A program made the translations under genes and the position numbers. Shown piece after piece: positions 42 through 64,000 of a stretch of DNA of 64,000 bases; the stretch's first letter is position 1, and each line of letters begins with the position of its first letter. Location of the stretch: assembly GCA_965203325.1 (NCBI GenBank), contig OZ241875.1, positions 3,488,001 to 3,552,000 of the forward strand, written 5' to 3'. The notes below the pieces were generated by a model. It did no database searches and was not told the origin of the DNA. It saw only the letters and a program-made list of their open reading frames with translations. This DNA comes from a bacterium (GTDB lineage Bacteria; UBA8248).

Positions 42-1004
42 GTGTTGGCGCAAAGAGGGCGGGAATTGCTGAAAGGGATACTGAAGGGCATTTTCTGGTT
101 CGTGTTTCTGGTCGCCTTGGGCGGTGCCGGGGGCGCCGCGGGCCTCTACGTCTTCCGGGGGGGAGAGGGCGTCTTCCTGCCCCGGGTCACGGGCCTCGAC
201 GTGGTTCGCGCGCTGGAACTGCTGGGCGAGAAGGGGATTCCCATGCAGGTCACCGGGCGCGCCTTCAGCGATTCGGTGTCCATGAACCACGTCGTGCGCC
301 AGAACCCACCCGGCGGGCGACGCATACGAAAGGGAAGAATCGTATCGCTGGTTCTCAGCAAGGGCCGGCGGGACGTGACGGTGCCGGCGGTGGTGGGGGA
401 GAACCTGGTTCGCGCGGAGACTCTCATCCGCCTGGAAGGCCTTCGCGTCCGGCTGGTGGAGCGGTTGTACGATCCCGGGAAACCCATCGATCAGGTTCTG
501 GGCGTCTGGCCGAACGAGGGTGAAAACATCCGGCGCGGCGAGGGCGTGGTGCTCGTCGTGAGCCAGGGTCCCAGAGAGCGGGCCTACGTCATGCCTGCCC
601 TGATCGGGGAGCCCGTCAACAACGCCCTCGACAAGGTCCGCGCGCTCGGCCTGAACGTCGGGCGCGTGCGCTACGTGGACCGCCCGGGATCGCTCAGGGG
701 TTCCATCGTCTCGCAGATTCCGCCGCACGGGCGGCGCGTTCTGGCGGGCCACCGCGTGCACGTGGACGTGGCGCGCGGGGCGGACCAGATGGCGGGAAAT
801 TTCATCGTCCTGCGCTACCGCGTGCCGCACGGGAAGCCCAGGCGCGCGCTTCGCGTGGAACTCGAATCGAACGGCGAGAAGCGCGAGGCGCTCTCCCGCG
901 AGGTGAGCGCGGGCGAGGAGATTCACCTGCTGGTGCGGGTGAAGGGCGCGGCGAGAGCGCGCATATTCCTGGACGGCCTGCTGGTCGAAGAACAAACGCA
1001 TTAG
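42..1004 (+). CDS. Membrane-anchored PASTA domain-containing protein (3 PASTA repeats, no kinase domain)
   Basis: N-terminal TM helix; three PASTA-like repeats (LPRVTG..QNPPGG..V.LV.SKG; VPAVVG; MPALIG..QIPPHG); upstream of rpe. Confidence 0.85.
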   Translation: MLAQRGRELLKGILKGIFWFVFLVALGGAGGAAGLYVFRGGEGVFLPRVTGLDVVRALELLGEKGIPMQVTGRAFSDSVSMNHVVRQNPPGGRRIRKGRIVSLVLSKGRRDVTVPAVVGENLVRAETLIRLEGLRVRLVERLYDPGKPIDQVLGVWPNEGENIRRGEGVVLVVSQGPRERAYVMPALIGEPVNNALDKVRALGLNVGRVRYVDRPGSLRGSIVSQIPPHGRRVLAGHRVHVDVARGADQMAGNFIVLRYRVPHGKPRRALRVELESNGEKREALSREVSAGEEIHLLVRVKGAARARIFLDGLLVEEQTH

Positions 1005-1295
1005 GGGATCGTTGAAAAAGCCTCGCTAGGGGCGGGCGGTATCGGGGGTTACGCGGCGGTTCTTCTTTCTGCCGCGCAGGTGGCCACAAAACCTCATCCT
1101 GAGTAGGCGCGAAAGCGCCGTATCGAAGGATGGGGGGTGCATCCCTCCGGCGGGCGCGAATTTCGCCCTTCGATACGCCGCCTTCGGCGGCTACTCAGGG
1201 TGAGGGGTGCCGGGGAACGGCGGAGCCTGCCCCGAGCGAAGTCGAGGGACCGCTACTCAGGATGAGAGAGATGTGAGGGTTTTTTAGGCAGCCTC
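1004..1295. mobile_element. MITE-like element E1 carrying an inverted pair of CCTCATCCTGAGTAG..GTATCGAAGG repeats
   Basis: Left end GGGGATCGTTGAAAAAG (1004-1020), right end TTTTTTAGGCAGCCTC (1280-1295); ATTA on both flanks (1000-1003, 1296-1299); internal inverted copies 1092-1129 and 1167-1205. Confidence 0.7.
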
Positions 1296-1313
1296 ATTAG
1301 GGAAGGAATCGAC

Positions 1314-1991
1314 ATGGCGAAGCCCGATATGGCGCCCGGCGGAATCCGGGTCGCGCCCTCTTTGCTCTCGTGCGCTTTCGAGCGGATGGGCGAGGAGATA
1401 GCGGCGGTGCGCGAAGCCGGGGCCGACTGGCTGCATTTCGACGTGATGGACGGCCGTTTCGTGCCGAACATCTCCGTGGGGCCGCTGGGCGTCGAGGCGG
1501 CCAGAAGAGCCGCACCGGACATGGTGCTCGACGTGCACTTGATGATCGCGGATCCGGATCGCTATATCGATGCGTTCGCCGATGCGGGCGCGGACATCCT
1601 GACGGTGCACGTGGAGGCGCCGAGGCACGTCCACCGCACCCTCCAGAGCATTCGCGCGCGCGGCCTGGGCGTCGGGCTGACGCTCAACCCCGGAACGCCG
1701 CTTTCGGCGGTGGAGGGTCTGCTCCCGCAGGTGGACATGGTCCTCGTCATGAGCGTCAACCCGGGTTTCGGCGGCCAGAAATTCATACCGGCTTCGCTTG
1801 AGCGGATTCGCCGCCTGAGAGAGATGATCGAGGCGGGGGGCCTGTCGGTTCTGATAGAGGTCGACGGCGGCGTGACGCCGGAGAATACGGCGGAAATACG
1901 CGCGGCGGGCGCGGAAGTGCTGGTGGCCGGTTCCGCCGTATTCGGCGCGGAAGACTACGCCGAGGCCATACGCGGCATCCGGGGCGGGTGA
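1314..1991 (+). CDS. rpe: Ribulose-phosphate 3-epimerase
   Basis: APSLLS, HFDVMDGRFVPN, DVHLMI, MSVNPGFGGQKF, VDGGV, VAGSAVF motifs. Confidence 0.97.
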   Translation: MAKPDMAPGGIRVAPSLLSCAFERMGEEIAAVREAGADWLHFDVMDGRFVPNISVGPLGVEAARRAAPDMVLDVHLMIADPDRYIDAFADAGADILTVHVEAPRHVHRTLQSIRARGLGVGLTLNPGTPLSAVEGLLPQVDMVLVMSVNPGFGGQKFIPASLERIRRLREMIEAGGLSVLIEVDGGVTPENTAEIRAAGAEVLVAGSAVFGAEDYAEAIRGIRGG

Positions 1992-2150
1992 AAAGGCCTG
2001 ATGAATGAGGGTCTCACGCGACTAGGGAGGCGACGGTTTGTGTAGGGGCCGCATATATGCGGCCCTTGTGGTGGGTGAAAAAATCCGGGTCGCATATATG
2101 CGACCCCTACACATAAACAAATTTTCCCTCTCCGGCTTTTCAACAACCCC
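1981..2150. mobile_element. MITE-like element E2 carrying a GTAG-REP doublet
   Basis: Degenerate left end GGGGCGGGTGAAAAGG overlapping the rpe stop; right end GCTTTTCAACAACCCC (2135-2150); GTAG-GGGCCGCATATATGCGGCCC..GGGTCGCATATATGCGACCC-CTAC (2042-2110); homologous to 33734-33878 and to the reverse complement of 46481-46647. Confidence 0.75.
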
Positions 2151-2210
2151 CTCAAAGGGGAGTGAGAAAAACCCGAGCGGGAGAGAGTGGCCACCCCCAT
2201 CCACACGCGG

Positions 2211-2240
2211 TTGACACTCGCCGCATAAAATCCTTATAAG
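2211..2240 (+). promoter_or_regulatory. Putative sigma70 promoter of the ffh operon
   Basis: TTGACA (2211-2216), 18 nt spacer, TATAAG (2235-2240). Confidence 0.55.
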
Positions 2241-2312
2241 TTGGGTTTCCGCACCCGGCCTGGCGGGTGGAAAATCGTAAACATATTGAATATCAACCAG
2301 TTGGGGTGTTCG

Positions 2313-3647
2313 ATGTTCGACGGCTTGAAAGAGCGCCTGGGCGGGATCTTCAAGGACCTGAGAAGCCGGGGCGTTTTGGGAGAAAAAGAGGTCGATTCCG
2401 CGCTCCGCGAGATTCGCCTGGCCCTGCTCGAAGCCGACGTGAACTTCCGGGTCGCCAAGGATCTGGTGGCGAAAATCCGCGAGGATCTCCTCGGCGCCGA
2501 GCGCGTCGCGCACCTGGACCCCTCCCAGCAGGTCATCAAGGCGGTCCAGGGGCGTCTCACCGAACTCATGGGGGCGAAGAGCGCGCCGCTCGAGCGCGCC
2601 GCGAGCGGCGTCACCACGGTGATGCTCGTGGGTCTCCAGGGTTCGGGAAAAACGACGACGGCCGGCAAGATCGCCCTCAGGCTTAAGAGTAAGGGAATGC
2701 GCGTATTGCTCGTCCCCGCGGACGTAGCACGCCCCGCCGCCATCACCCAGCTCAAGCGGCTGGCCGAGCAGACGGGCGCCGACGCGTTCGATTCGGAAGG
2801 TATGCCGGACCCCGTGGAGATCGTCCGCCGGGCCGGTGAAAGAGCCCGTTTGGAGCATTTCGATTACTGCATCGTGGACAGCGCGGGCCGGCTGCACGTC
2901 GATGACGCCTTGATGGACGAGTTGAAGCAGATGAAAGAAGCGGCGCGGCCCGATGAGGTGCTCCTGGTCGCGGACGCCATGACGGGCCAGGAAGCGGTGA
3001 ACCTGGGCGCGGCGTTTTCCGAGCGCATCGGCATCACGGGCGTCGTGCTGACGAAGCTCGACGGCGACGCCAGAGGGGGCGGCGCGCTTTCGCTTCGCTC
3101 GGTGACGGGCGTGCCCGTCAAGATGGCCGGTGTGGGCGAGAAGCTCGACGCGCTCGAGGATTTTCATCCCGAGAGAATGGCGTCGCGCATTCTGGGGATG
3201 GGAGACGTCATGTCCCTCATCGAGAAGGCCGAAGCCGCCATCTCTCCCGATGATGCGAGGTCCATGGTGGAATCCCTCGGCAAGGGGAATTTCACCCTCG
3301 TGAGCATGAAAGAGCAGATCCTCCAGATGCGGAAGATGGGTTCGATGGGCGATGTCCTGTCCATGATACCGGGGCTGGGAAACAGGATGCCCGACGTGGA
3401 TATCGACGAGAAAGAACTCACGCGCACGGTGGCCATCATCGATTCGATGACGCCCGCCGAGCGGGTGAAGCCCGAGATCATCAAGGGCAGCCGCAGGAAG
3501 CGCATCGCCGCCGGGAGCGGAACCCGGGTGCAGGACGTGAACCGGCTGCTCAAGCAATTCGCGCAGACACAGAAGCTGATGAAGCAATTTTCCAGGGGCG
3601 GCAAGAAAAAACAGATGCAGAGAATGCGTCAAATGCTAAATTTCTAG
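2313..3647 (+). CDS. ffh: Signal recognition particle protein
   Basis: [31 protein letters not shown] and Met-rich M domain; start moved to ATG 2313 (MFDGL). Confidence 0.98.
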
Positions 3648-3658
3648 GGAGAGAGACT

Positions 3659-3904
3659 TTGGCCGTAAAAATCAGACTTGCCCGCGGGGGCATGAAAAAA
3701 GCGCCGCGTTACCGCGTCGTCGTCCAGGACGAGCGCATGCCGCGCGATGGCCGTTTCATCGAAAGCATCGGCCGCTACGATCCGTCGGAAGACCCTGCAT
3801 TCGTTCATATCGATCTCGAGAAGGCGAAGGCCTGGATGGAAAAGGGCGCCATCCCCACAAGGACGGTCAGGAACCTTCTCGACAGGGCGGGCATCGACGA
3901 TTAG
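3659..3904 (+). CDS. rpsP: 30S ribosomal protein S16
   Basis: [34 protein letters not shown] start. Confidence 0.98.
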
Positions 3905-3913
3905 GGAAACCCC

Positions 3914-4420
3914 GTGAGCGACAGGGTGGCCGTGGGCGTCGCGCTCAGGCCGCACGGCATCAAGGGCGCCGTTCGGGTGGAGCCCTGGCTCGACGACGCG
4001 GGCGTCTACGGGCGAATCGAAGAAGTGTTCTCCCGAGATGAGCCTGGGCGGAAGTTCGAGGTGGCGTCCTGGCACCAGGGCGGCAAGGGAGCCATCGTCT
4101 GGAAACTCACGGGAATCGACACCCCCGAAGACGCCGAGGCGCTGCGGGGGACGATTTTTTTGGCGGACAGGAAATTCCTCGACGGCCCCGATGAGGGCGT
4201 TCTCTATTTCGAGGATTTCGAGGGCTGCGAGATCATCGACGAGGAGGGAAGCCCTCTCGGGCGCGTGGTGGATATGTTCGGAGCCGGCGGCAACGATGTC
4301 ATCGTCATCCGCACGCCCGAAGGAGGAGAGTTGCTCGCGCCCGCGACGCGCGAGGTCGTGTTGCGGCGCGATGGGGATCGCTGGGTTTTCCGACTGCCGA
4401 AACTCGACCACGAGGATTGA
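3914..4420 (+). CDS. rimM: Ribosome maturation factor RimM
   Basis: RPHGIKGAV, AEALRG, GGNDVIVI; synteny rpsP-rimM-trmD. Confidence 0.93.
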   Translation: MSDRVAVGVALRPHGIKGAVRVEPWLDDAGVYGRIEEVFSRDEPGRKFEVASWHQGGKGAIVWKLTGIDTPEDAEALRGTIFLADRKFLDGPDEGVLYFEDFEGCEIIDEEGSPLGRVVDMFGAGGNDVIVIRTPEGGELLAPATREVVLRRDGDRWVFRLPKLDHED

Positions 4421-4429
4421 GGAGGCGTC

Positions 4430-5158: not shown

Positions 5159-5173
5159 AGGGAGCACGGGATA

Positions 5174-5746: not shown

Positions 5747-5776
5747 TGCCGTTTTTTCAGGACAAGGAGCAGGCAG

Positions 5777-9409: not shown

Positions 9410-9649
9410 GGGGCTGTTGAAAAAGGCCACATTTCAGGGGTAGAGGAGAAGCTCCTCTCGGATAGAAAGCCACCCCCCCCTACCCCCCCCTTGTCAGGGG
9501 GGTATAAAAAGGCGATGCGCTCCCGCCGGGTTGAGGGGGTTTTGCTTTTTCTTGCCTCCCTGACAAGGGGGGGTAGGGGGGGGTGGTTTATGGGGTTTCC
9601 CTTTCAAGGGGGTTGCTATTACCCTCTCAGGGGCTTTTTCAACAATCTC
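9410..9649. mobile_element. MITE-like element E3 carrying an inverted pair of CCCCCCTACCCCCCTTGTCAGGGGGG repeats
   Basis: Ends GGGGCTGTTGAAAAAG (9410-9425) and CTTTTTCAACAATCTC (9634-9649); CGTA on both flanks (9406-9409, 9650-9653); inverted cargo about 9470-9586. Confidence 0.8.
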
Positions 9650-9650
9650 C

Positions 9651-9903
9651 GTAGAGCCGGTTCGCGAACCGCCCCTACAGTTGGAGCGCCTCTTGAAGCG
9701 TAGGCGCGAATACCCACTCGGTTTTGTTCGTCATTTCTGAGTGAGGAAGGTTTTTTCAACATCTCCCCCTTCAACGAACTGTTGAACAAGTCTCTCGGTC
9801 GGTGTTGTGGTTGTCCTTTTTCAGGATGGTTCGAGTCAGGACAGGCACGGAGGCCTGTCCCTACGGGGCGTCCCTCGATACGGCCCCCTTCGGTAGGCTC
9901 AGG
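9651..9903. repeat. Cluster of REP-like palindromes and orphan element ends
   Basis: GTAGAGCCGGTTCGCGAACCGCCCCTAC (9651-9678); orphan ends at 9749-9766 and about 9776-9792; GGACAGGCACGGAGGCCTGTCCCTAC (9839-9864); E1-type fragment CCCTCGATACG..CTCAGG (9872-9903). Confidence 0.7.
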
Positions 9904-21710: not shown

Positions 21711-24491
21711 CTAGCGAGCCGCTCCTTCCACCGTTACCCGAGGGCTGCTGAGAAGTATTTCCGTTCGACGATTTTTGGCGCGGCCCTCTTCGGTGTCGTT
21801 TTTCGCCACCGGGCGGTAAAATGAGTAGCCGGTCGCCGACATGCGCTCCGGCGATATGTTTTTCGATTCCAGGAACTTGACGATGGCGATAGCCCGCGCG
21901 GACGATAGTTCCCAATTCGAAGGATAACGTCTGAGCAGATTGCCTCTGATGGGCCGATTATCCGTATGTCCTTCTACCTGTATGATTTTGTCTTTTTGTT
22001 TTCCGAGAAATTCCGCAATCTTGGAGAGCGCCTCGCTTCCCTTTTCCCTGATCCTGGCGCTTCCCAGATCAAACAACAGATTGTTCACGAAGGTCACGCG
22101 GAGCAAGTCTTCGGTTCGTCGTAGCGTGATGGATTGTTCCTGTAGCTTGCTGTCCATCTCTTTCAGGTCTGATTCCAGCCTTTTGGCCCGTTCGGCTTCT
22201 TCACGTGCTCTTTTCTCCAGGACTTTAGAGCGTGCGATAGCCAGGGTGTGTTTCTTGATCGTTTCCGCCAGGCTCAGGTTTGTCTGATTCAGCTTGTTCC
22301 TGATGAGATCGGCCACGGAGGTTTTCTCCGCGATGAGTTGGCTCATCTCTTGAACCTGCGCCCGGAGGAGTTCCCTGGCTTTTCCGAGACGGTTTGCCTC
22401 TTCGGCCCGCTTTCTTGCGAGTTCGGCGTTTCGGGTCTTTGCTTTTTCCGCCTCCGTGCGCGTCTTGCGTTCAGTATCGAGAATTTTCCGGGTTTGTTCG
22501 AGCGCGAGTTCGAGGTTCTGGGTTTTGGTTCTTCCCTTTTCGATGGTGGCGTTTTTCTCCGAGATGAGTCGGCTCATCGCCTGAACCTGGGTATTGAGGA
22601 TTTCCCTGGTTTTCTCGAGGCGCTTCATCTCCGCGGCCCGGTTTTGCGCGAGTTCGGTTTTTTGCGCGGTTGATTTCTCGGCCTTGGCCGGCGCCTTGCG
22701 CTGACTGGCGACGCTGCGTTTTTTCGCCCTTGCCTGCTCGTCCTTGATGAGTTGCCCCATCTTTCGGGCCTGGGTCTCGAGAATCTTTCTGACTTGTTCG
22801 AGGCGCTTTATCTCTGCGGCCCGTTTTTGGGCGAGTTCGATGGTTTCTTTATTTGATTTTTCAACCTTCACCCTTATCTTGCGCTCGGTTTCGAGGGCCG
22901 CCTGGATTTGCTTGAGCGCGCGCTCGAGACTTTGGGTTTTTGATTTTTCCTGTTCGATGTCGGCGCTCTTCTTCGCGATGAGTTGACGCATGATTCCAAC
23001 TTGGGTCTCGAGGCGCTCTCTGGCTTTTTCGAGACGCTTTATCTCCGAGGCCCGTTCGCTGGCGAGTTTGATGTTCTGCTGACTTGCTTTTTCGGCCTTG
23101 GCGCGCATCTTGCGCTCGGCATCGAGGGCCGCCTGGATTTGCTTGAGCTCGAGTTCGAGTTTTTGAGTTTTTGCTTTTTCCTGCTCGATGTCCGCGCTTT
23201 TCATAGTGATGAGTTGGCGCATCCTGCGGACTTGCGTCTGGAGAAGCTCCCTGACTTTTTCGAGACGCTTCGTCTCCCGGGCGCGGGTGCTGGCGAGTTG
23301 GACGTTTTGCCGATTCGATTTTTCCATCTCGACCCGCATCTTGCGCTCGTTCTCGAGCGTGGTCTGGATTTGCCTGAGCGTGCGCTCGAGTTTTTGGGCC
23401 TTCGCTTTTTCCTGTTCGATGTCGGCGCTTTTCTCCGCGACGAGCTTGCTCATCTTTTGGGCTTGGGCCTCGAGTCCTTTTATCTCCTCGGTCCGCGCCT
23501 TACGCTCGTTTTCGAGAGTTGTCTCGATTTGCTTGAGCGTACGCTCGATATTTTGATTCTTCACCGCCCCTTTCTCGATGTCGGCGCTTTTCTCGGCGAT
23601 GAGTCGGCTCATCTTTTCAGCCTGGGTCACCAGGCGCTTTATTTCTTCGGCCCGGTTCCCGGCGAGTTGTCTGTTTTGTTGGTTTGCTTTTTCAACTTCG
23701 GCGCGCGTCTTGCGCTCGTTTTCGAGGGAGCCATGGATGATGTCGAGTGTGGCTTTGAGGTTTCGGATTTTGGCTTTTTCCTGCTTGATGCCGGTGTTTT
23801 TCTCCGCGATGAGCCGACTCATCTTTTCAGCCTGGGTCACCAGGCGCTTTACCTCTTCGGCCCGGTTCCCGGCGAGTTGTCTGTTTTGTTGGTTTGCTTT
23901 TTCAACTTCGGCGCGCGTCTTGCGCTCGTTTTCGAGGGAGCCATGGATGATGTCGAGTGTGGCTTTGAGGTTTCGGATTTTGGCTTTTTCCTGCTTGATG
24001 CCGGTGTTTTTCTCCGCGATGAGTCGGCTCATCTTTTCAGCCTGGGTCACCAGGCGCTTTATCTCTTCGGCCCGGTCCCCGGCGAGTTGTCTGTTTTGTT
24101 GATTCGCTTTTTCAACTTCGGCGCGCGTCTTGCGCTCGTTGTCGAGAGCGGTCTGGTTTTCTTGGAGAGCGTTTTCGAGGCTTTGAATTTTCGCTTGCCC
24201 TTGCTCGATAGCGGCGTTTTTCTCGGTGACGCGCCTGTCCAGCTCTTCCATTTGTGTCTTGGCGGAGGCGACCTCTTTTGCGAGCCGGGACTCCAGACTC
24301 TTCATCTTCTGGTCGATGTCTTTGAAGCCCTGGATGTCGCTTTTGAGCTTGGCGGAATTCTCTTTTTCTTTTGAGAGCTCAGCTTCTCTTTGCTGCAGCA
24401 GCTCTTTTGTCGATTGGGATTGCTGGGCGAAATATCCTGTCCCGCCGAGCAGAACGGCGATAATCGCCCCTATGGAGATGCGGAGCCCCAC
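21711..24491 (-). CDS. Membrane-anchored long coiled-coil repeat protein with C-terminal OmpA/MotB-like peptidoglycan-binding domain
   Basis: N-terminal TM helix; about 750 aa of K/E/Q/R-rich heptad repeats; LFDLGSA..IQVEGHTDN..NWELSSARA..GRAKNRR; AGGAGA RBS before GTG. Confidence 0.85.
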   Translation of the reverse strand: MGLRISIGAIIAVLLGGTGYFAQQSQSTKELLQQREAELSKEKENSAKLKSDIQGFKDIDQKMKSLESRLAKEVASAKTQMEELDRRVTEKNAAIEQGQAKIQSLENALQENQTALDNERKTRAEVEKANQQNRQLAGDRAEEIKRLVTQAEKMSRLIAEKNTGIKQEKAKIRNLKATLDIIHGSLENERKTRAEVEKANQQNRQLAGNRAEEVKRLVTQAEKMSRLIAEKNTGIKQEKAKIRNLKATLDIIHGSLENERKTRAEVEKANQQNRQLAGNRAEEIKRLVTQAEKMSRLIAEKSADIEKGAVKNQNIERTLKQIETTLENERKARTEEIKGLEAQAQKMSKLVAEKSADIEQEKAKAQKLERTLRQIQTTLENERKMRVEMEKSNRQNVQLASTRARETKRLEKVRELLQTQVRRMRQLITMKSADIEQEKAKTQKLELELKQIQAALDAERKMRAKAEKASQQNIKLASERASEIKRLEKARERLETQVGIMRQLIAKKSADIEQEKSKTQSLERALKQIQAALETERKIRVKVEKSNKETIELAQKRAAEIKRLEQVRKILETQARKMGQLIKDEQARAKKRSVASQRKAPAKAEKSTAQKTELAQNRAAEMKRLEKTREILNTQVQAMSRLISEKNATIEKGRTKTQNLELALEQTRKILDTERKTRTEAEKAKTRNAELARKRAEEANRLGKARELLRAQVQEMSQLIAEKTSVADLIRNKLNQTNLSLAETIKKHTLAIARSKVLEKRAREEAERAKRLESDLKEMDSKLQEQSITLRRTEDLLRVTFVNNLLFDLGSARIREKGSEALSKIAEFLGKQKDKIIQVEGHTDNRPIRGNLLRRYPSNWELSSARAIAIVKFLESKNISPERMSATGYSFYRPVAKNDTEEGRAKNRRTEILLSSPRVTVEGAAR
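23590..24140. repeat. Near-identical intragenic tandem repeat, 210 bp (70 aa) period, about 2.6 copies
   Basis: ATCTTTTCAGCCTGGGTCACCAGGCGCTTT recurs at 23611, 23821 and 24031. Confidence 0.9.
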
Positions 24492-24599: not shown

Positions 24600-24632
24600 A
24601 AAGCGAAGCCGGGGCTGAAGCCCCGGCTTCGC
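24600..24632 (-). terminator. Terminator-like hairpin after the BI-1/YccA gene
   Basis: GCGAAGCCGGGGC-TGAA-GCCCCGGCTTCGC, short T run on the minus strand. Confidence 0.6.
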
Positions 24633-33733: not shown

Positions 33734-33878
33734 GGGGTTGTTGAAAAAGACCTGATGAACAAGGGTTTTACGTGACCGTGGAGGGGCGGTTTTTGTAGGG
33801 GCCGCATATATGCGGCCCATGGTAGGCAGGCGTAAAAGGCCGGGTCGCATATATGTCGGACATATATGTCCGACCTAC
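33734..33878. mobile_element. MITE-like element E4 (right end missing) with GTAG-REP doublet
   Basis: GGGGTTGTTGAAAAAG (33734-33749) then CCTGATGAA.. shared with E2/E6; GTAG-GGGCCGCATATATGCGGCCC at 33795; ends GTCGGACATATATGTCCGAC-CTAC. Confidence 0.75.
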
Positions 33879-41194: not shown

Positions 41195-41468
41195 GGGGTT
41201 GTTGAAGAAGCTCTCACATCTCTCTCATCCTGAAAACCAACCCCCCCTACCCCCCCTTAACAGGGGGGTAAAAAAAGAAAGCCCCCTTGTCAGGGGGTAT
41301 GAAATGGCGATGCCCGCCACCGATAGAGGGGGGTTTTGATTTTTCTTGCCCCCCTGTCAAGGGGGGGTAGGGGGGGTTGCCTTTATCCTCTGACATGGGG
41401 GGTTGGGGGTCGAACGCGACCGGAGAGAGAGTGTTCGCTCCCTTGACAAAGGCTTTCTCAACAACCCC
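41195..41468. mobile_element. MITE-like element E5 (CCCCCCTACCCCCCTT cargo; chimeric with E1)
   Basis: Ends GGGGTTGTTGAAGAAG (41195-41210) and CTTTCTCAACAACCCC (41453-41468); core aligns with E3; CTCACATCTCTCTCATCCTGA matches the reverse complement of the E1 right arm. Confidence 0.8.
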
Positions 41469-41489
41469 CTCAAGGGGAAGTGAATTACA

Positions 41490-42653
41490 TCATTCCCTTT
41501 CTTGCCGCTCCCTCAGGAACGCCCCCACTCTTTCGAGGCCGGCCTCGATGTTTTCGACCGAGTTGCAGTAGGAAAACCGCAGGAACCCCTCTCCACCCGG
41601 CCCGAAATCTGCTCCCGGCGCCACGGCCACGCCGGTGGCTTCGAGAATTTCTTTTGCCAGTTCCAGGCTGTCCGCCCCGTACGCGCGCGCATCGGCGAAG
41701 GCGTAGAACGCGCCCGTCGGCTCGTGAAGCATTTTGAGGCCGATGTCCTCCAGGCGCGCGAGCATGATCTTGCGCCTTTCGTCATAAATCCCGCGCATGC
41801 GCTCCGCCTCGGGCACGCCGTCCTTGAGAGCGGCGACCGCCGCGTGCTGGACGAAGGAATTGGGCGAGACGAAATAGTTTTGCTGCAGTATCTCCAGCGG
41901 GCGGACGTATTCGGGGGGCACGATGAGATAGCCGACCCGCCAGCCCGTCATGGCGAAATACTTCGAGAAACCGTTGATGACGAAACAATCCTCCGTGAAG
42001 TGGAGCGCCGTGTATTCCGCGTCCTCGTAGCTGAGTCCGTGATAAATCTCGTCCGAGACGATGGGAACTCCCAACTCGGCGAGCGCCGCCATATCCCCTC
42101 GCGAGAGCGATGCGCCCGTGGGATTGGAAGGCGAGTTGATGAGGATGGCCCTGGTGTTCTCGGTGATGTGCTCACGGACGGCCTCGGCCTTGAGCGCGAA
42201 GCCGTGCTCCGCATGGGTGGGGACCCGCACGGGCCTCCCGCAGGCGGAGAGGATGAAAGCCGGGTAGCAGGCGTAGTGGGGATCTGAAATGACGATCTCA
42301 TCGCCCGCATCCACGAGAACGGAGAAGAGCATCAGCAGACCCGGGCTCGTGCCGTTCGTCACCACCACGCGCCCGGGCGATACGGATACGCCATATTTGT
42401 GGTTGTAATATTCCGCGATCGCCTCGCGCAGCTCGGGAATTCCCAATGCCGCCGTGTAGTGGGTGTGGCCGGCGCGCAGGGCGTCCTCGGCGGCACGGGT
42501 GATGACCCCGGGCGTATCGAAATCGGGCTCTCCCACTTCCAGGTGGATAACATCGCGGCCCTGGGCCTCCAGTTGATGGGCGCGCTCCATGATGTCCATC
42601 ACCAGGAAGGGCTTGATGCCCGAGATGCGCGCCGGGATGGAAAATTCCTTCAT
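41490..42653 (-). CDS. PLP-dependent aminotransferase class I/II (AspB-like)
   Basis: LEVGEPDF, NSPSNPTG, SDEIY, GFSKYFAMTGWRVG, GAFY, FLRFSY; likely ATG 42653. Confidence 0.93.
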   Translation of the reverse strand: MKEFSIPARISGIKPFLVMDIMERAHQLEAQGRDVIHLEVGEPDFDTPGVITRAAEDALRAGHTHYTAALGIPELREAIAEYYNHKYGVSVSPGRVVVTNGTSPGLLMLFSVLVDAGDEIVISDPHYACYPAFILSACGRPVRVPTHAEHGFALKAEAVREHITENTRAILINSPSNPTGASLSRGDMAALAELGVPIVSDEIYHGLSYEDAEYTALHFTEDCFVINGFSKYFAMTGWRVGYLIVPPEYVRPLEILQQNYFVSPNSFVQHAAVAALKDGVPEAERMRGIYDERRKIMLARLEDIGLKMLHEPTGAFYAFADARAYGADSLELAKEILEATGVAVAPGADFGPGGEGFLRFSYCNSVENIEAGLERVGAFLRERQERE

Positions 42654-46480: not shown

Positions 46481-46647
46481 GGAGTTGTTGAAAACCTGGA
46501 GAGGAAAAATTTGTTTGTGTAGGGGTCGCATATATGCGACCCTAATTTTTTCACCCACTAAAAGGGCCGCATGTATGCGGCCCCTACAAAAACCACCCTT
46601 CCTCGGTCGCGTAAAACCCTCGTTCATCAGGGTTTTTCCAAAAACCC
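46481..46647. mobile_element. MITE-like element E6 (inverted homologue of E2) with GTAG-REP doublet
   Basis: Ends GGAGTTGTTGAAAACC and GTTTTTCCAAAAACCC; REP doublet 46519-46587; colinear with the reverse complement of 1981-2150. Confidence 0.8.
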
Positions 46648-52218: not shown

Positions 52219-52366
52219 GAAGATTCCTCACTTGAGATGATGCGCGTTTCTCATATCTTGGTTTTGGTAGTCCAAAGCTAGAACTTTGCGGCGGGCGTGT
52301 CAATTGAGGCAGAGTGATCGGGATTTTTCGCATTTTCGCGCGCTTGGCCGCCGGGGAGGAAGGCAG

Positions 52367-52945
52367 GTGGGTGAGGAAGGATCATTCAGGCCGAAGCTCG
52401 CGTATCTGGCGAGGGGCCTCACGCTCGCGCGGATTCTGGCGATTCCCCCCTTCGTCTGGGCATTGCTCCGCATCGATTCCGCTCCCGACGGGCTGTGGCG
52501 GGTCTTGCTCATCGGGGCTTACGTCTACGCGATCCTGAGCGACCTGATCGACGGCCCGCTGGCGAGGCGCGCGGGTGCGAAGAGTTATTTCTGGGGGCAG
52601 GTGGACGCCTTCTCGGACGTGGCCTTCAACGCGGCGGCGCTCGCAGCCGCCGCCTGGGCGGGGCGGGTCGGCCCCTGGGCCGCCCTGGGCGTATCGGCGC
52701 TGGGCGCGCAGTTCCTGTGGCGGTGTATGCGTGTGGCGGGAAACACGGATGATTCCCTGCCCGAGGATGCGGCGGGAAAATGGGCGGGGGTGTTTTTCTA
52801 CGCTCTGGTGGGTGTTGTCGTCTGCGAGACGGGTTTATCGTGGGAGTGGCTTGCGCCCGTCCTGCCCTGGCTCGGCCATCTGGTCTTTCTCTACGCCTTG
52901 TACCTGCTCATCCGGAACGCGCGCTCGCCACAAAGAAGTCTTTAG
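52367..52945 (+). CDS. CDP-alcohol phosphatidyltransferase family protein
   Basis: LTLARI, DLIDGPLARR..G..D..SD motif; start uncertain (GTG 52367). Confidence 0.8.
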   Translation: MGEEGSFRPKLAYLARGLTLARILAIPPFVWALLRIDSAPDGLWRVLLIGAYVYAILSDLIDGPLARRAGAKSYFWGQVDAFSDVAFNAAALAAAAWAGRVGPWAALGVSALGAQFLWRCMRVAGNTDDSLPEDAAGKWAGVFFYALVGVVVCETGLSWEWLAPVLPWLGHLVFLYALYLLIRNARSPQRSL

Positions 52946-53195
52946 GGGGGTTGTTGAAAAAGTCATCCTTTTCAGTGGATGAAGAGGACACCCCTCTCGA
53001 CCGGAAAACCACCCCCCCTACCCCCCCTTGACAGGGGTCAAAACCGACCGAAGAGGGAGGTTTTGCAAGACGATGTGTTTCTCGTCAATGGCTTATGCAA
53101 ACGCTCGTTCATCACTCGCGTTTGACCCCTGTCAAGGGGGGGTAGGGGGGGGTGCCTTTATCCCCTGAGGAGGAGGGCCTTTCTCAACAAACACC
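52945..53195. mobile_element. MITE-like element E7 (CCCCCCTACCCCCCTTGACAGGGG cargo)
   Basis: Left end GGGGGTTGTTGAAAAAG, right end CTTTCTCAACAAACACC; flanks CTTTAG / CTTCAG; inverted cargo about 53011-53040 and 53122-53153. Confidence 0.8.
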
Positions 53196-56477: not shown

Positions 56478-56597
56478 GTAGGGGTCGCATATCATGCGAC
56501 CCGCGTTGTGAAGGCGGGAAGGCCGGGCCGCATATATGCGGCCCCTACATCACTTCTTGAATCGGGTAGGGACAACTCCCTGTGGTTGTCCTTTTTC
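56478..56597. repeat. Free GTAG-REP doublet plus a second REP type (no terminal repeats)
   Basis: GTAG-GGGTCGCATATCATGCGACCC..GGGCCGCATATATGCGGCCC-CTAC (56478-56548); GTAGGGACAACTCCCTGTGGTTGTCC (56566-56591). Confidence 0.8.
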
Positions 56598-58630: not shown

Positions 58631-58667
58631 TGTGTTTGATTTTTTTGAAAAAAAGGTTGACTTTGCG

Positions 58668-58850: not shown

Positions 58851-60707
58851 ATGGCTGAGTCTTCAGGTAAAAACGGGGCTGAGAAGCAGCTTGTTGAACT
58901 CGAAACGGTGGCGATTCGCTTCGCCGGCGACTCCGGCGACGGGATGCAGCTCACCGGAGACAGGTTCACGAACGCGGCGGCCATCGCCGGGAACGATCTG
59001 AGCACGTTCCCCGACTTTCCCGCCGAGATTCGCGCCCCGGTCGGGACGCTTGCCGGAGTCAGCGGGTTCCAGATCAACTTCTCGAGCAGGGACATCCATA
59101 CGCCCGGCGACGCCGTGGACGTTCTCGTGGCGATGAACCCCGCCGCGCTCAAGACGAGCATCGGCGATTTGAAGAGCGGGGGCATCATCATCGCGAACGT
59201 CGACAACTTCGGCCAGAAGAACCTGGCCAAGGCCGGCTATGAGTCCAACCCCCTCGAGGATGAGGAGTTCAAGAGCAACTATGACATCCACGAGGTGAAG
59301 ATCACCTCCATGACGCGCCAGGCCTTGGAAGACATGGAGCTTCAGTCCAACCTGGCGGATCGGTGCAAGAACTTCTTCGCGCTGGGGCTCATGTACTGGA
59401 TGTACTCGCGTCCGCTGGAGCCGACCAGGGAGTGGATCGAGGAGAAATTCGGGAAACGACCCGAGTTCGTGCAGGCCAACACGCGCGCGCTCGAGGCGGG
59501 CTATTTCTTCGGCGAGAACACCGAGGTCTTCACGAGCAACTACATCGTGCGCGAGGCGACCTACCCGGCCGGCCGGTACAGGAACATCTCGGGCAACGTC
59601 GCCCTGGCCTACGGCTTCATCGCGGCGACGAAGAAGATGGGCATCAACCTCTTCTGGGGCGCATATCCGATTACGCCGGCCAGCGACGTACTTCACGAAC
59701 TCTCCCGCCACAAGAATTTCGGCGTGCAGACCTTCCAGGCCGAAGATGAAATCGCCGCCGTCTCCGCGGCGCTGGGCGCTTCGTTCACCGGCTCGCTCGG
59801 CGTCACTTGCTCGAGCGGCCCCGGCATCGCTCTCAAGGCCGAAGCCATGGGCCTGGGTGTGATGACGGAGCTTCCCATGGTCATCGCGAACATCCAGCGC
59901 GGCGGCCCGAGCACCGGCCTTCCCACGAAGACCGAGCAGGCCGACCTCCTTCAGGTGATGTTCGGGCGCAACAGCGAGAGCCCGCTGCCGGTCGTGGCGG
60001 CGGCCACGCCGGGGGATTGTTTCTGGACGGCGATAGAGGCGAGCCGCCTGGCGGTGAAATACATGACGCCCGTCGTGCTTCTGAGCGACGGCTATCTGGC
60101 CAACGGCTCGGAACCCTGGCTGCTGCCCAGGGCGGCGGACATTCCCGAGATGCCGGTGACCTTCCGGACGGAGCCGGAAGGTTTTCTTCCCTACCTGCGC
60201 GACCCCGAAACGCTGGCGCGTCCGTGGGCGATCCCCGGAACGCCCGGGCTCGAGCACAGGATCGGCGGAATCGAGAAGGAAGACCAGACCGGCAACGTCA
60301 ACTACGAGCCCGAGAACCACGAGTTCATGGTGCGCACGCGCGACGCGAAGATCGCAGGCATCGCGAAGGACATCCCGCCCGTGGAGGTCATCGGCGAGGC
60401 GAGCGGCAAGGTGCTCGTCATCGGCTGGGGCGGCACCTTCGGCGCCATCACGGCGGCGATCGAGGCCTTGCAGGCCCGTGGCGCCTCCGTATCCCAGGTT
60501 CACCTGAGGCATCTCAACCCCTTCCCGGCGAACCTGGAAGAAGTGCTCGGCAATTTCGAAAAAATCCTCGTCCCCGAGTTGAACCTCGGGCAACTCTCCA
60601 AGATGCTCCGCTACCAGTATCTGGTCGACACGATCAGCTTCAACAAAATTCAGGGCAAGCCCTTCAAGGTCGGCGAACTGATTACCAAGATTGAGGAGTT
60701 ACTCTAA
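58851..60707 (+). CDS. korA: 2-oxoacid:ferredoxin oxidoreductase alpha subunit (gamma-alpha fusion)
   Basis: RFAGDSGDGMQL, YPITPAS, QAEDEI, SSGPG, QRGGPSTGLPTK. Confidence 0.95.
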   Translation: MAESSGKNGAEKQLVELETVAIRFAGDSGDGMQLTGDRFTNAAAIAGNDLSTFPDFPAEIRAPVGTLAGVSGFQINFSSRDIHTPGDAVDVLVAMNPAALKTSIGDLKSGGIIIANVDNFGQKNLAKAGYESNPLEDEEFKSNYDIHEVKITSMTRQALEDMELQSNLADRCKNFFALGLMYWMYSRPLEPTREWIEEKFGKRPEFVQANTRALEAGYFFGENTEVFTSNYIVREATYPAGRYRNISGNVALAYGFIAATKKMGINLFWGAYPITPASDVLHELSRHKNFGVQTFQAEDEIAAVSAALGASFTGSLGVTCSSGPGIALKAEAMGLGVMTELPMVIANIQRGGPSTGLPTKTEQADLLQVMFGRNSESPLPVVAAATPGDCFWTAIEASRLAVKYMTPVVLLSDGYLANGSEPWLLPRAADIPEMPVTFRTEPEGFLPYLRDPETLARPWAIPGTPGLEHRIGGIEKEDQTGNVNYEPENHEFMVRTRDAKIAGIAKDIPPVEVIGEASGKVLVIGWGGTFGAITAAIEALQARGASVSQVHLRHLNPFPANLEEVLGNFEKILVPELNLGQLSKMLRYQYLVDTISFNKIQGKPFKVGELITKIEELL

Positions 60708-61730
60708 ATGTCTACGACGACAGCCAAGAACGGCGGGGGTTTGGGCCTCACCCGCAAGGATTTTCAGTCCGACCAGGTCGTGCGCTGGTGCCCGGGTTGC
60801 GGCGACTACGCGATTCTGGCGCAGATGCAAAAAGTCTTGCCGACGCTCGAGATTCCGCGCGAGAAGTTCGTTTTCATCTCCGGCATCGGCTGCGCGGCGC
60901 GCTTTCCCTACTACATGGACACGTTCGGTTTCCACACCATTCACGGACGCGCTCCGGCGTTCGCCACCGGCGTCAAGGTGAGCAACCCGGACCTTTCCGT
61001 CTGGGTCATCAGCGGTGACGGCGACGCGCTGTCCATCGGCGGAAACCACCTGATCCACTCCATGCGCCGCAACGTGGGCGTCAAGATTATTCTCTTCAAC
61101 AACCGCGTGTACGGATTGACCAAGGGCCAGTATTCGCCGACCTCGCTTCTGGGCTCGCGCACGAAATCCACGCCCATCGGCTCGGTGGACTATCCGCTCC
61201 ACCCGCTGACGCTGGCCCTGGGGGCGGAATGCAGCTTCGTCGCCCGCACGACGGACAGGGATCAGAAGCACATGGCCGCGATGTTCGAGGAGATGGCGAA
61301 CCACGAGGGAACGTCGCTGCTCGAAGTGCTGCAGAACTGCATCGTGTTCAACGACGGCGCGTGGCACAAATTCACCGAAAAAGGCATGAAAGAGCAGAAC
61401 GTGATTTATCTCGAAGACGGTCAGCCCCTCGTCTACGGCCCGGAAGATGATCGCAAGGGCATTTCTCTCGAGGATTACAAGGTCCGCATCGTCGAGGCCG
61501 ATTCTCCCGACGTCACCGTCCACCGCGTGGACGACGAGGCGGGCGGCTACGCCCATATCCTGAGCCGGGTCGAACTCGAAGGCGGCCCTGTGCCCCTGGG
61601 CGTCCTGCGAAAGGTGGAGCGTCCGCCGTTCGAGGGACTGATGGTCGATCAAGTCGCCGCGGCCCAGGCGAAAGGCGAGGGCGATATCGACGCGCTCTTG
61701 AATTCGGGAGATACCTGGGAGCACAGCTAG
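60708..61730 (+). CDS. korB: 2-oxoacid:ferredoxin oxidoreductase beta subunit
   Basis: WCPGCGD, SGIGC, HGRA, GDGD..SIGGNH, NN.VYGLTKGQ.SPT. Confidence 0.96.
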   Translation: MSTTTAKNGGGLGLTRKDFQSDQVVRWCPGCGDYAILAQMQKVLPTLEIPREKFVFISGIGCAARFPYYMDTFGFHTIHGRAPAFATGVKVSNPDLSVWVISGDGDALSIGGNHLIHSMRRNVGVKIILFNNRVYGLTKGQYSPTSLLGSRTKSTPIGSVDYPLHPLTLALGAECSFVARTTDRDQKHMAAMFEEMANHEGTSLLEVLQNCIVFNDGAWHKFTEKGMKEQNVIYLEDGQPLVYGPEDDRKGISLEDYKVRIVEADSPDVTVHRVDDEAGGYAHILSRVELEGGPVPLGVLRKVERPPFEGLMVDQVAAAQAKGEGDIDALLNSGDTWEHS

Positions 61731-61802
61731 TATTCGTCGCCTCCAAGGGCCGCCGGTTTCCGTTCCGGCGGCCTTTCTCGCGCCTCCGGGCGTCCGGAAA
61801 CC

Positions 61803-62672
61803 ATGTCCAAAACCTTCACCCTCATGCTGGTTCATGCGCACCCCGACGATGAGTGCAGCAGCACGGGCGGTCTGATTCTCAGGAGCGCGCGCGAGGGCCA
61901 CCGCGTCATTCTCATCACCTGCACCAACGGCGAGATGGGCAAGATGGAGCATCTCGGCGAAAACCTCGACCCCGACTCCGAGGCGGACCAGGACAGACTC
62001 GGGGAGATCAGGCTCGAGGAACTCGAACGGGCGGCGCGGATATTAGGGGTTTCCGAGGTTCACGCCCTGGGCTATCGCGATTCGGGCATGGACGGCTGGG
62101 AGGGCAACGGGCATCCCCGGGCATTCAAGAACGCCGATGAGGAAGAAGTCGTCGGCAGATTAGCGGGCTACATACGCCGCTATCGCCCCGACGTGGTCGT
62201 TACCTACAACGAGCAGGGCGGGTACGGCCACCCCGATCATTTGATGGCCAACAAGGTCACCACCGAGGCGTTAGAGGCGGCGGCGGACGCCGCCAGATTC
62301 CCCGAAGAAGGGCAAGAGGCCTGGCGCGTGCCCAAGTTCTACCACACCGCGTGGTCGCGCACGAAGATGCTGCGCGCCTGGCGCTGGATGAAGTTGTTCG
62401 GGCAGAAAACGCCGCTCGACGATCCCGATTTCCGGGAGGACAAGTACGGGACGCCGGATGAGCTCATCACGACCCGCGTGAACATCCGCAGATACCTTCG
62501 CCGCAAATGGCGCGCCCTCACGGCGCACAAGAGCCAGATCAACGGGAATTTCTTCTGGTGGTTCGTCCGCATGACGGGGCGGTGGCTCTACAACGAGGAA
62601 ACCTTCGTTTGCGCCCGCTCGCAGACAGGGGTGCGCGACGAGGAGAGGTCGGTTTTCGAGGGCCTATCCTGA
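61803..62672 (+). CDS. PIG-L family deacetylase (Mca/MshB-like)
   Basis: HAHPDDE, R..EL..AA..LG, GYRDSGM, GGYGHPDH, AL.AH.SQ. Confidence 0.9.
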   Translation: MSKTFTLMLVHAHPDDECSSTGGLILRSAREGHRVILITCTNGEMGKMEHLGENLDPDSEADQDRLGEIRLEELERAARILGVSEVHALGYRDSGMDGWEGNGHPRAFKNADEEEVVGRLAGYIRRYRPDVVVTYNEQGGYGHPDHLMANKVTTEALEAAADAARFPEEGQEAWRVPKFYHTAWSRTKMLRAWRWMKLFGQKTPLDDPDFREDKYGTPDELITTRVNIRRYLRRKWRALTAHKSQINGNFFWWFVRMTGRWLYNEETFVCARSQTGVRDEERSVFEGLS

Positions 62673-63062
62673 ATCGTCCGAAAGGGGTTTGCTGACCTCG
62701 ATCAGAAACCCGTTCGGGTCCTTCAGCATGAACATGCGCACGCCCCAGGGGGCGTCGAGTGGCGGGAAAACGGTTTCCGCGCCTTTTTCCACGAGGACGT
62801 CATAGGCGCGGTCCACGTCCTCGGGCGTGAGCGTGACGACGACGCCCGAGCCCCTGGGTTCCCGGAGGGGTTCGAGATTCCACTTGCGCATCTCCTCATC
62901 GGGAATCGGCGCGTGGATGACGAGCGAGGTTCCTCCCACGTCATATCGCACGTGTTGTTTCTCCCGGCTCGCTTCTTTCAGACCCAGCGTTTCGGTATAA
63001 AAACGACACGACGCCTCGTAGTCTTTGGTGATGAGGAAAACGGCGGGCAGCGATTCGAACAA
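62664..63062 (-). CDS. VOC/glyoxalase family protein
   Basis: FY...LGL, DVD..Y..L...G, PWG.R...KDPNG.LIE. Confidence 0.88.
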   Translation of the reverse strand: MFESLPAVFLITKDYEASCRFYTETLGLKEASREKQHVRYDVGGTSLVIHAPIPDEEMRKWNLEPLREPRGSGVVVTLTPEDVDRAYDVLVEKGAETVFPPLDAPWGVRMFMLKDPNGFLIEVSKPLSDDSG

Positions 63063-63106
63063 TTCAGACTCCTTGCAGTTTTGATGCGCTCGTTTGGAGA
63101 AAAGGA

Positions 63107-63790
63107 ATGCCCCATCCCCTGGTCGAGCTGAAAGAAGTGTCCAAAACTTACGTCGCAGGCGATGTGCTCATCCACGCGCTTAAAGATGTGAACTTCCGGG
63201 TAGAACAAGGCGAGTTTATCACGGTTTCGGGCCCGAGCGGCTCGGGCAAGAGCACGTTTCTGCACTTGATGGGCGCGGTCGATGCACCCACCGGCGGCGA
63301 GGTTTTTCTGGGCGGACGGGAAATATCGCGCCTGAGCGATGAGGGCCTGAGCGAAATTCGCCGCAAAGAGGTGGGCTTCATCCATCAGTTCTTTCACCTC
63401 ATGCCGACGATGACGGCTTATGAAAACGTCGCCCTGCCGCTACTGCTTCAGGGCCGGAAGCGCGCCGAGATCAAAGAGATGGCCGAAAACGCCCTGGCGC
63501 GGGTAGGGCTTGAGAACCGTATGCGCAGCTTCCCGAGGCAACTCTCGGGCGGCGAGATGCAGCGCGTGGCCGTTGCGCGCGCCGTCATCCACAAACCCCG
63601 TCTCATCCTCGCCGATGAGCCGACGGGAAATCTCGATTCTGAAAACTCGCAAAACGTCCTGGAACTCGTCGCAGAACTCCACGAAGAAGATGGTTTCACT
63701 GTCGTCATGGCGACGCACGACCAGATGCCCTTGCACTACGCCACCCGGAGGGTCGGAATAGTTGATGGCCGCCTGGAGGGGGGTTGTTGA
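63107..63790 (+). CDS. ABC transporter ATP-binding protein (LolD/MacB type)
   Basis: [37 protein letters not shown]; stop codon lies inside the E9 terminal repeat. Confidence 0.95.
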
Positions 63791-64000
63791 AAAAGACCTG
63801 GCTTCGTGATTCGGCGTATGTAATCGACCGGGGAGGGAATATGTCTCCATCCGCGTTTGGTGACGTAGGGGCGGCCCCCCGTGGCCGCCCGTATCGAAGA
63901 TGTCTACCCTCGTGGTTGTCCCGCATCAGGACAGGCACAGGGGCCTGTCCCTACGGTGTACAATTCGATAATCGGGATGCCCTCCCCCAAAGGGGTTGTT
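63780..64000. mobile_element. MITE-like element E9 (left end plus REP pair) and the start of another end at the window edge
   Basis: GGGGTTGTTGAAAAAG (63780-63795); GTAG-GGGCGGCCCCCCGTGGCCGCCC (63865-63890); GGACAGGCACAGGGGCCTGTCC-CTAC (63929-63954); GGGGTTGTT at 63992-64000. Confidence 0.7.

Follow-up and report, generated by a model that had tools for sequence, protein, structure and literature searches.

The question raised by this locus is how short non-coding elements bounded by one and the same pair of ends came to enclose interiors that are unrelated to each other. The DNA analysed, hereafter the window, is a stretch of 64,000 nucleotides (positions 3,488,001 to 3,552,000 of contig OZ241875.1, assembly GCA_965203325.1) from a bacterium of the UBA8248 lineage. 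It carries eight intergenic elements (E1 to E8) of 145-291 bp each, which sum to 1,756 bp or 2.7% of the window and are bounded by a common 16-mer end. These elements had been proposed in an earlier sequence-only reading, and all eight were found where it had placed them (Table 1). [quoted passage not shown]

The 16-mer GGGGTTGTTGAAAAAG was matched 12 times in the window, on both strands and with at most 3 mismatches, compared to a mean of 0.43 and a largest count of 2 in 100 dinucleotide-preserving shuffles of the window. At this threshold, both ends were detected only in E3, E5 and E7, so that the six elements with both ends counted previously are reduced to three; E2 and E6 have one end each with 4 mismatches (left and right, respectively). 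The right end of E1 shows 6 mismatches over the 16 positions, and is credible because the adjoining 21 bp are identical to the left linker of E5. Only one end was found in E4 and in E8, the latter being cut by the window edge, and an additional right end lies beyond the eight elements at 9751-9766. The three cargo motifs of the sequence-only reading occurred in the window far above chance. No RNA family of Rfam was matched over any element at gathering thresholds, a single tRNA being the sole match.

For comparison, a genome collection was scanned with the 16-mer (position 12 as R), which yielded at least 124 stretches, 80 with 2.5-kb flanks; these loci are designated L followed by a number, and the fetched DNA amounts to about 0.4 Mb in total, scattered over many genomes. 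Two or more ends were present in 55 of the 124 stretches listed. Among the matches listed, the DNA closest to the window came from metagenome-assembled genomes (MAGs) labelled Nitrospinota, with 94.5% identity over 2,169 bp in L013 and 94.1% over 305 bp in L104, and the MAG chromosome L124 was 96.4% identical to the window over 193 bp of dnaK. When each forward end was paired with the next reverse end 40-600 bp downstream, 47 distinct units of 91-462 bp were obtained from the window and the loci, which are short, non-coding and multicopy units with terminal inverted repeats, as MITEs are. Short palindromic interiors of unrelated sequence were also enclosed by these ends in other MAGs, among them those labelled Bacteroidales (L002, L010) and Planctomycetales/Planctomycetota (L031, L109), and in L120 another pair of GTAG-tagged REPs lies between ends of the window type. 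The presence of the ends in unrelated phyla fits a widely conserved IS1182-family terminus.

The assignment to IS1182 is based on elements that encode a transposase. In a related MAG (L005), an open reading frame (ORF) of 430 aa is bracketed by GGGTCTGTTGAAAAACCCC termini that are inverted and spaced by 1,364 bp. It scored 308.5 bits on the NCBIfam IS1182 equivalog NF033551 (cutoff 270) and contains the Pfam domains DUF772, DDE_Tnp_1_6 and DDE_Tnp_1, whereas its matches to the NCBIfam IS5 models were weaker and below threshold. Its termini have GGGGT and TGTTGAAAAA in common with the ends of the small elements. A tblastn search of a plasmid collection with the L005 protein returned 1,329 records, of which the best annotated ones (54% identity) are labelled IS1182 family transposase. 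On two rhizobial plasmids, IS1182-family coding sequences are bracketed by GGGGTCGTTGAAAAAG/CTTCTTCAACGACCCC (L125, 1,513 bp) and by GGGGCTGTTGAAGAA/TTCTTCAACAGCCCC (L126, 1,497 bp), with exact 5-bp duplications CGCGT and TACGT, respectively, and the window consensus, compared by eye, agrees with these annotated termini at 15 of 16 and 14 of 15 positions. Judged by sequence, the ends are IS1182-family terminal inverted repeats, and the resemblance to IS1182 proposed in the sequence-only reading is borne out by the near-identical termini and 5-bp duplications of both plasmid copies and by the L005 ORF between similar ends. The ends may also resemble termini of the IS5 family (IS903 group). Further candidates for a full-length IS, inverted end pairs 1-1.9 kb apart in L038, L030, L049 and L063, were rejected, as the genes inside are ordinary ones (alanine racemase-like, short-chain dehydrogenase, RraA-like and a large archaeal protein). 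The two plasmid copies share the same left flank (GCAGCGCTGT.., at 326-340 in L125 and 330-344 in L126) despite their different genera, which suggests insertion into a repeated target sequence.

Direct repeats abutting the ends were also found in the small units. Repeats of at least 4 bp flank 10 of the 47 units and those of at least 5 bp flank 6, against 0.48 and 0.2 expected, respectively, from mismatched left and right flanks; three of the 10 are tandem L043 copies with identical flanks and represent one event. The duplications are mostly of 5 bp (CTCCA, AAAAC, GACAA, GCAGT), the same length as in the IS1182 relatives L125 and L126, and they occur on units of differing interior that span classes A, B, D, E, F and others. 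The flanking repeats previously noticed at E1 (ATTA) and E3 (CGTA) are real, and their length is better taken as 5 bp than as 4 (ATTAG and CGTAG). Composites of several interior classes have moved as units. In L043, the chromosome of a MAG labelled candidatus Porisulfidus, the three copies of one element (2367-4291) have the flanks gggctaacat and acatgccctc, and between element copies there is an ORF whose transposase domain is of the PD-(D/E)XK nuclease family (PDDEXK_2, 2744-3712); this arrangement suggests a segmental repeat.

When the interiors were clustered, at least six families were obtained, each present in several genomes: A (10 members, defined by a doublet named REP-A), B (9), E (8, including E8 of the window), D (6), F (6) and one more of 4 members, from two MAGs labelled candidatus Porisulfidus. 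Singletons and one pair in Bacteroidales MAGs were found besides these. The window itself holds four classes and not the three described earlier, as E8 belongs to class E, a separate GTAG REP pair unlike the palindrome of E1; the latter, class C, also occurs in L058, L102 and L108. Within classes A, B and E, pairwise identity was 81-90% in the ends and 86-92% in the core arms, compared to 46-57% in spacers and linkers, where the comparisons contain 36-62% gaps except for the class A inter-arm spacer (4%).

Cores, linkers and ends are combined in a modular way. Class A consists of subgroups A1 (E2, E4, E6, L008) and A2 (L018, L025, L032, L024, L009), which have only the ends and the REP pair in common. 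Inside A1, E2 and E6 are full-length homologues in inverted orientation (85.2% identity over 162 bp), and E2, E6 and E4 are homologous along their whole length, beyond ends and cargo. A BLAST comparison of linkers only gave 63 matches within a class and 25 across classes, and the subterminal modules S1 and S2 adjoin the ends of units whose cores belong to A, B, C, E and F. The left linker of E5 matches the right terminus of E1 (21 bp, 100% identity) and carries the start of the class C palindrome, the inverted repeat of E5 continuing outward as CCTTGA next to GGGG. Part or all of a class C half-palindrome is found in the linkers of the class B units E5 and L108, and ends lie within other hairpins in L083, L058, L068 and L124. 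Because of these two observations, the nesting of shells (the paired ends) and cores is, on this sequence evidence, reciprocal. In L083 and L058, the ends stand at the very centres of REP or other hairpins, between GGGCGCATAC and GTATGCGTCC in the former and between CCCCCTTATC and GATAAGGGGG in the latter.

Two further hairpins belong to this mosaic. Part of module S1 is the hairpin ATTCCGGCGAAAGCCGGAAT, a dispersed short palindrome in its own right, which was found in the interiors of L018, L024, L058, L065 and L035, in several element classes and, within L035, in both orientations. The hairpin CACTCCCCCCTTGAGGGGGAGTG and its variants adjoin or overlap ends in the window (2151-2198 and 41469-41490), in L013 (about 2270-2300) and in L124, and this type of hairpin is the main component of class D interiors.

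Most interiors are inverted pairs of GTAG-tagged hairpins, as in REPINs. A scan of the window for GTAG with an adjoining hairpin gave 15 matches, 14 of them intergenic; 8 of these 14 are in E2, E4, E6 and E8, and 6 matches, corresponding to five hairpins, lie outside the shells. Doublets were present in the same four elements and at 56478-56548, in a cluster whose nearest shell end is more than 350 bp away. By eye, class C has GTAG with a hairpin of 5-bp stem, and class B has GTAG on the 3' side of its hairpin. Both the GTAG-tagged inverted doublet and the dispersal independent of shells that characterize REPs and REPINs are therefore present. A test of co-occurrence, crude because the long intergenic regions consist of the elements themselves, was made on unbiased DNA, which comprised the window and those parts of the locus flanks that lie more than 700 bp away from the selected end; of 25 core arms, 19 had a correctly oriented end within 350 bp and 6 had none. 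GTAG REPs are mobilised by HUH transposases, the REP-associated tyrosine transposases (RAYTs), and by analogy we infer that the cargos may be mobilised by an HUH enzyme. The idea that the shell is colonised by hairpin repeats stands, as the cargos are GTAG REP pairs that also occur outside shells, and as one core is found in different linker contexts and one linker module beside different cores.

The ends persist while interiors differ between related genomes, and this was observed at four orthologous sites where the end is kept at its position. At the E7 site, the window has a class B unit and L013 one of class D, both beginning after the same stop codon. At the E2 site, the class A unit of the window contrasts with a class B unit plus a second right end in L104. 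Upstream of dnaK, the window has a truncated class A unit (E4); in L124, a truncated class A unit encloses a class E unit that is complete. The fourth case is that of L035 and L080, where flanks of 2.3 and 2.2 kb show 90.8% and 90.5% identity and the interiors are unrelated; GGTTAG stands before the left end in both, and TTA[G/C]GCTTCTTC after the right end.

The sequences outside the ends show recurrent features. In the outer flanks of 111 distinct ends, C amounts to 41-64% at positions -12 to -6 (background 30%), A/T to 72% at -4 and A to 51% at -2. The C-N4-G context that had been assigned to most left ends holds for 7 of 7 left ends in the window and is not general, C at -5 reaching 34% against a background of 30% over the 111 ends. 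Some recurrent flanks are halves of other hairpins (CCCCTTGAG 8 times, CCCTGACAA 4 times, CCCCTTGTC 3 times and GCATAC 4 times), and together with the base composition this suggests insertion into palindromes of the form CCCC-N5-GGGG. Neighbouring ends at most 600 bp from each other form 82 pairs: 45 convergent, 6 back to back and 31 in tandem with the same orientation, the last at spacings of mostly 27-135 bp. In the window, the right end of E3 and the additional end at 9751-9766 form such a tandem pair. Nesting with subsequent partial deletion would leave ends stacked in this way.

The explanation that we propose involves two systems. A DDE transposase of the IS1182 type, encoded elsewhere in the genome or the lineage and acting in trans, would recognise the two ends and move the whole unit, each insertion producing a target duplication of about 5 bp. 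Insertion would apparently favour the loops of short G/C-clamped palindromes (CCCC-N5-GGGG) in intergenic positions, often at gene ends. The cores, which are also free in the same genome, would presumably be spread by a separate RAYT/HUH system. Shells and cores would become nested in each other, and a composite, once formed, would amplify as a unit through its common ends. These ends would persist at a site while the interior is replaced over time, most likely when a new element inserts in or beside the resident one and deletion or recombination between ends of the same orientation follows; stacked ends would be the intermediates of this replacement. Mobilisation in trans by an intact transposase, the involvement of a RAYT, the target preference and the route of interior replacement are thus inferred components of the model.

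Several observations weigh against this explanation. As the sequence-only reading had stated for transposases, none was detected in a Pfam scan of the 67 window ORFs, and neither were RAYT (Y1/HUH), GIY-YIG or DUF559 genes found among them; the search it had suggested for such genes flanked by cargos gave none in the window. In the fetched loci of at least 2 kb, no REP-bracketed ORF of RAYT size (100-330 aa) was present, an absence that means little in a sample of about 0.4 Mb; of the flank ORFs, 136 were listed and 12 were scanned for domains. An intact cognate transposase is missing from the 64-kb window, and the sole lineage-related copy, that of L005, is probably defective: about 54 residues that both L125 and L126 have between conserved core blocks, in the region of the catalytic core, are absent. 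No further copies of this transposase were found by tblastn in the fetched loci or the window, and the L005 termini contain one inserted base compared to the ends of the small elements. No duplication of at least 4 bp flanks 37 of the 47 paired units, and several units at the centres of palindromes have no duplication at all. The C-run context could belong to some longer repeated unit and need not reflect a target preference. The counts over loci refer to a sample chosen for one exact end, from genomes other than that of the window. There is a candidate empty site with a single target copy, with one ATTGAGG in the window at the place where L013 has 401 extra bp between two copies of it. The ends, however, lie 41 and 54 bp inside this segment and not at its edges, and the insert is thus composite and not a clean insertion of a single MITE; the difference could equally be a deletion in the lineage of the window.

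That the palindromic interiors are inherited MITE sequence, belonging to several ordinary families mobilised by one transposase and diversified by descent and recombination among copies, with no second system involved, is in our view unlikely. Such an origin would agree with the conservation of each class as a unit across genomes, with the target duplications at the common ends of composites of at least five classes, and with the lack of a RAYT among the window ORFs or bracketed by REPs in the fetched DNA. It has difficulty with cores that have no shell, as at 56478-56591 and 9839-9864, with the occurrence of one core in unrelated linkers (A1 and A2), and with identical linker modules beside different cores. 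Core arms conserved at 86-92% within surroundings at 46-57% are not what neutral descent of one unit predicts, and the cores bear the GTAG tag by which PMC3733652 defines RAYT-associated REPs. A different objection concerns the same-site cases, which could, with a minor but appreciable probability, be independent insertions of different members at a strongly preferred target nucleotide. The recurrent context of the ends, with its C run and A/T-rich 5-nt spacer, their frequent position right after stop codons and the repeated insertion into hairpin loops all speak for it. Target choice, though, does not look nucleotide-exact, given the diversity of the duplications (CTCCA, AAAAC, GACAA, GCAGT, CGTAG, ATTAG); both junctions coincide in L035 and L080, neither of which has a C-run target; and the stacked ends of the same orientation (31 of 82 pairs) are the expected residue of partial replacement.

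Host-maintained mosaics, spread by recombination and not by transposition, would likewise combine REPs with conserved flanking motifs, occupy gene ends and gaps between convergent genes, fold strongly, and conserve ends and cores better than linkers; in them, the 16-mer would bind a protein or have a structural role, and the hairpins would serve as terminators or stabilise mRNA. We regard them as very improbable, since annotated IS1182-family elements have the 16-mer as their terminal inverted repeat, duplications of 5 bp are far more frequent than chance predicts, and unrelated phyla contain the same ends around unrelated interiors. Hardly credible is a spread of the terminal repeats by a tyrosine (HUH) transposase of the TIRYT kind (RAYT-like, with terminal inverted repeats), by which both tiers would be HUH-driven. 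Target duplications are a DDE signature that is not expected from HUH single-strand transposition, and they are present here. Di Nocera et al. (PMC3733652) describe RAYT-like genes flanked by terminal inverted repeats, some of which start with GGGG (motif GGGGWSAS), in repeat families organised as dimers. By eye, GGGGTTGT at the start of our ends does not fit that motif, the ends match IS1182 termini instead, and no Y1 transposase was found in the window, among the 12 scanned flank ORFs or bracketed by REPs in the fetched DNA. A stronger version of the two-system explanation would see the shell as a persistent docking cassette, a partnership of two transposition systems in which REPIN cores are exchanged between fixed ends by a dedicated route, either RAYT-directed insertion into the shell or a transposase-mediated or gap-repair replacement templated by other copies by way of the common ends, these being candidate routes. 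The IS1182-type ends may have stayed fixed at a site for at least the roughly 9% divergence between the L035 and L080 genomes, and we consider such a partnership doubtful. Were it true, mobility of the DDE type, with its target duplications, would become available to REPINs, the shell would acquire at its centre a strong hairpin pulling its ends together, and the conserved S1/S2 background would let REPIN insertion junctions be read directly.

The features of the window on which the preferred explanation, MITEs with IS1182-type ends and REPIN-like cores, is based are collected in Table 1. The genes present are housekeeping ones only (rpe, ffh, trmD, RNase HII, coaX, birA, valS, clpB, dnaK, dnaJ, grpE and others), and the elements are located at gene boundaries. 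A TAG stop codon immediately precedes E1 and E7, and the gaps between convergent genes are filled by E3, E5 and E7, the last occupying the entire gap between stop codons at 52943-52945 and 53197. Two genes, rpe and one for an ABC-transporter ATPase, have their TGA stop codon inside the TTGTTGA of an end; insertions therefore set the present C-termini of both proteins. In predicted single-stranded DNA folds, the outer stem is made by the ends and the inner one by the core pair, with energies of -69.7, -43.0 and -69.3 kcal/mol and z-scores of -8.3, -6.5 and -8.4 for E7, E2 and E3, respectively. A 'tRNA-Cys' called by ARAGORN inside E3 (95 nt, anticodon ACA, 9434-9528, minus strand) was discarded, as it had no Rfam tRNA match; it looks like a false positive caused by the class B palindrome.

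Table 1. Shells, cores and related repeats in the window (positions are those of the window).
Feature	Position	Strand	Ends and flanks	Core and context
E1	1005-1295		left end 1005-1020, 2 mismatches; right end degenerate; ATTAG at 1000-1004 and 1296-1300	shell with class C core: GTAG and GCGCGAAAGCGCC hairpin within CCTCATCCTGAGTAG..GTATCGAAGG inverted pair; between PASTA-domain gene stop (1002-1004) and rpe start (1314)
E2	1981-2150	+	left end with 4 mismatches, holds rpe stop 1989-1991; right end 2135-2150	class A1; REP-A inverted doublet at 2042-2065 and 2087-2110
E3	9410-9649		both ends; flanking CGTA(G) duplication	class B inverted pair (C7-8TAC7-8TTGTCAGGGGGG); between convergent genes UPF0102 and coaX
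Symmetric GTAG REP	9651-9678			between E3 right end and the end at 9751-9766
Stacked second right end	9751-9766 (unit 9651-9766)	-	3 mismatches	
Solitary GTAG REP	9839-9864	-	no shell around it	class E type (GTAGGGACAGGCC...)
E4	33734-33878	+	exact left end 33734-33749; no right end	class A1; REPs at 33795-33818 and 33855-33878; between clpB stop and dnaK start
E5	41195-41468		1 mismatch at each end	class B core; between convergent genes
E6	46481-46647	-	right end with 4 mismatches	class A1
Empty site	52303-52309		single ATTGAGG	401-bp composite insert at this site in L013
E7	52947-53194		left end exact; right end with 3 mismatches	class B
Cargo-only cluster	56478-56591			REP-A inverted doublet (56478-56502, 56525-56548) and class E type REP (56566-56591)
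E8	63780-64000		left end exact, holds ABC-ATPase stop 63788-63790; cut by window edge	class E; GTAG REPs at 63865-63890 and 63929-63954; S2-type left linker

Other repeats of the window are separate from this family. A 926-aa ORF with a C-terminal OmpA domain (21711-24491, minus strand) contains a long array of diverged tandem coding repeats (22322-24222), whose copies are 70-96% identical at offsets of about 210 bp and its multiples. A near-perfect palindrome of 30 bp, unrelated to the element family, lies between the OmpA-family and Bax1-I genes (24603-24632); it may be a terminator.

MITEs and REPINs, both miniature mobile DNA of bacteria, are as a rule assigned to different classes driven by unrelated enzymes (DDE and HUH). 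If the arrangement proposed here were true genome-wide, it would be a concrete case of two non-autonomous systems that nest in and ride on each other, it could explain the 'REP dimers inside long palindromes' of other phyla, and it would provide a defined background against which REPIN junctions and the turnover of MITE interiors could be read from comparative genomes. At the level of annotation, the elements supply the stop codons of two genes and cause one false tRNA call in the window. In the literature searched, no description of REP pairs enclosed by IS1182-type ends was found, and nothing on MITEs in Nitrospinota.

Among known systems, the shells are closest to IS1182 elements and their MITEs. 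MITEs of 160 and 169 bp related to IS1182 (to ISMac2) are listed for Methanosarcina acetivorans in PMC3852290, and an IS1182 member of Paracoccus is listed in PMC3281130 with 16-bp repeats and a direct repeat of 4. The elements of the window resemble these in their near-identical terminal repeats, 5-bp duplication, small size, non-coding nature and multiple copies. They differ in having at least six unrelated interiors under one pair of ends and in their host, Nitrospinota-like MAG lineages. Unlike MITEs formed by deletion of an IS1182 element, their interiors are REP pairs and, compared by eye, show no likeness beyond the ends to the subterminal sequence of the L005 IS.

The cores can be compared to REPINs, defined by Bertels and Rainey in 2011 (PMC3116915), and to the GTAG REP superfamilies, described along with the TIRYTs by Di Nocera et al. 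in 2013 (PMC3733652). Here too, hairpins tagged with GTAG form inverted doublets separated by a short spacer, and they are also found unenclosed, as doublets, as singlets and in one small cluster; as a difference, DDE-type terminal repeats surround most copies here, with target duplications at these repeats. Long palindromes with a REP dimer embedded in them are known as GTAG-15 of Anabaena variabilis and CGTC-1 of Halothiobacillus neapolitanus (PMC3733652, section 7), and their plan, a longer inverted repeat with a REP dimer between its two arms, is the one seen here. The outer palindromes of those cases were regarded as targets, no explanation was offered for them, and each had one REP family (PMC3733652); in our case, IS1182 termini with duplications make up the outer arms, and many types of core are carried by a single pair of arms.

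Mosaic organisation is also characteristic of the bacterial interspersed mosaic elements (BIMEs) of enterobacteria and the Neisseria intergenic mosaic elements (NIMEs), summarised in PMC3184786 and PMC3733652. The window elements share with them intergenic arrays that combine REPs with other conserved motifs, one motif entering several combinations. Identity with BIMEs or NIMEs was rejected, as the elements have IS-type terminal repeats and duplications; to our knowledge, transposon-type terminal repeats and target duplications are not part of the definition of either. Identity with TIRYT-associated elements (TIRtrons) was rejected on the end motif (GGGGTTGT against GGGGWSAS) and on the duplications. 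Finally, IS elements that target REPs were reported by Tobes and Pareja (2006, as cited in PMC3733652 and PMC3184786), and ends at the centres of REP or other hairpins in L083 and L058 are similar to these; here, in contrast, the inserting unit is a MITE that itself carries REPs, so that the nesting is reciprocal.

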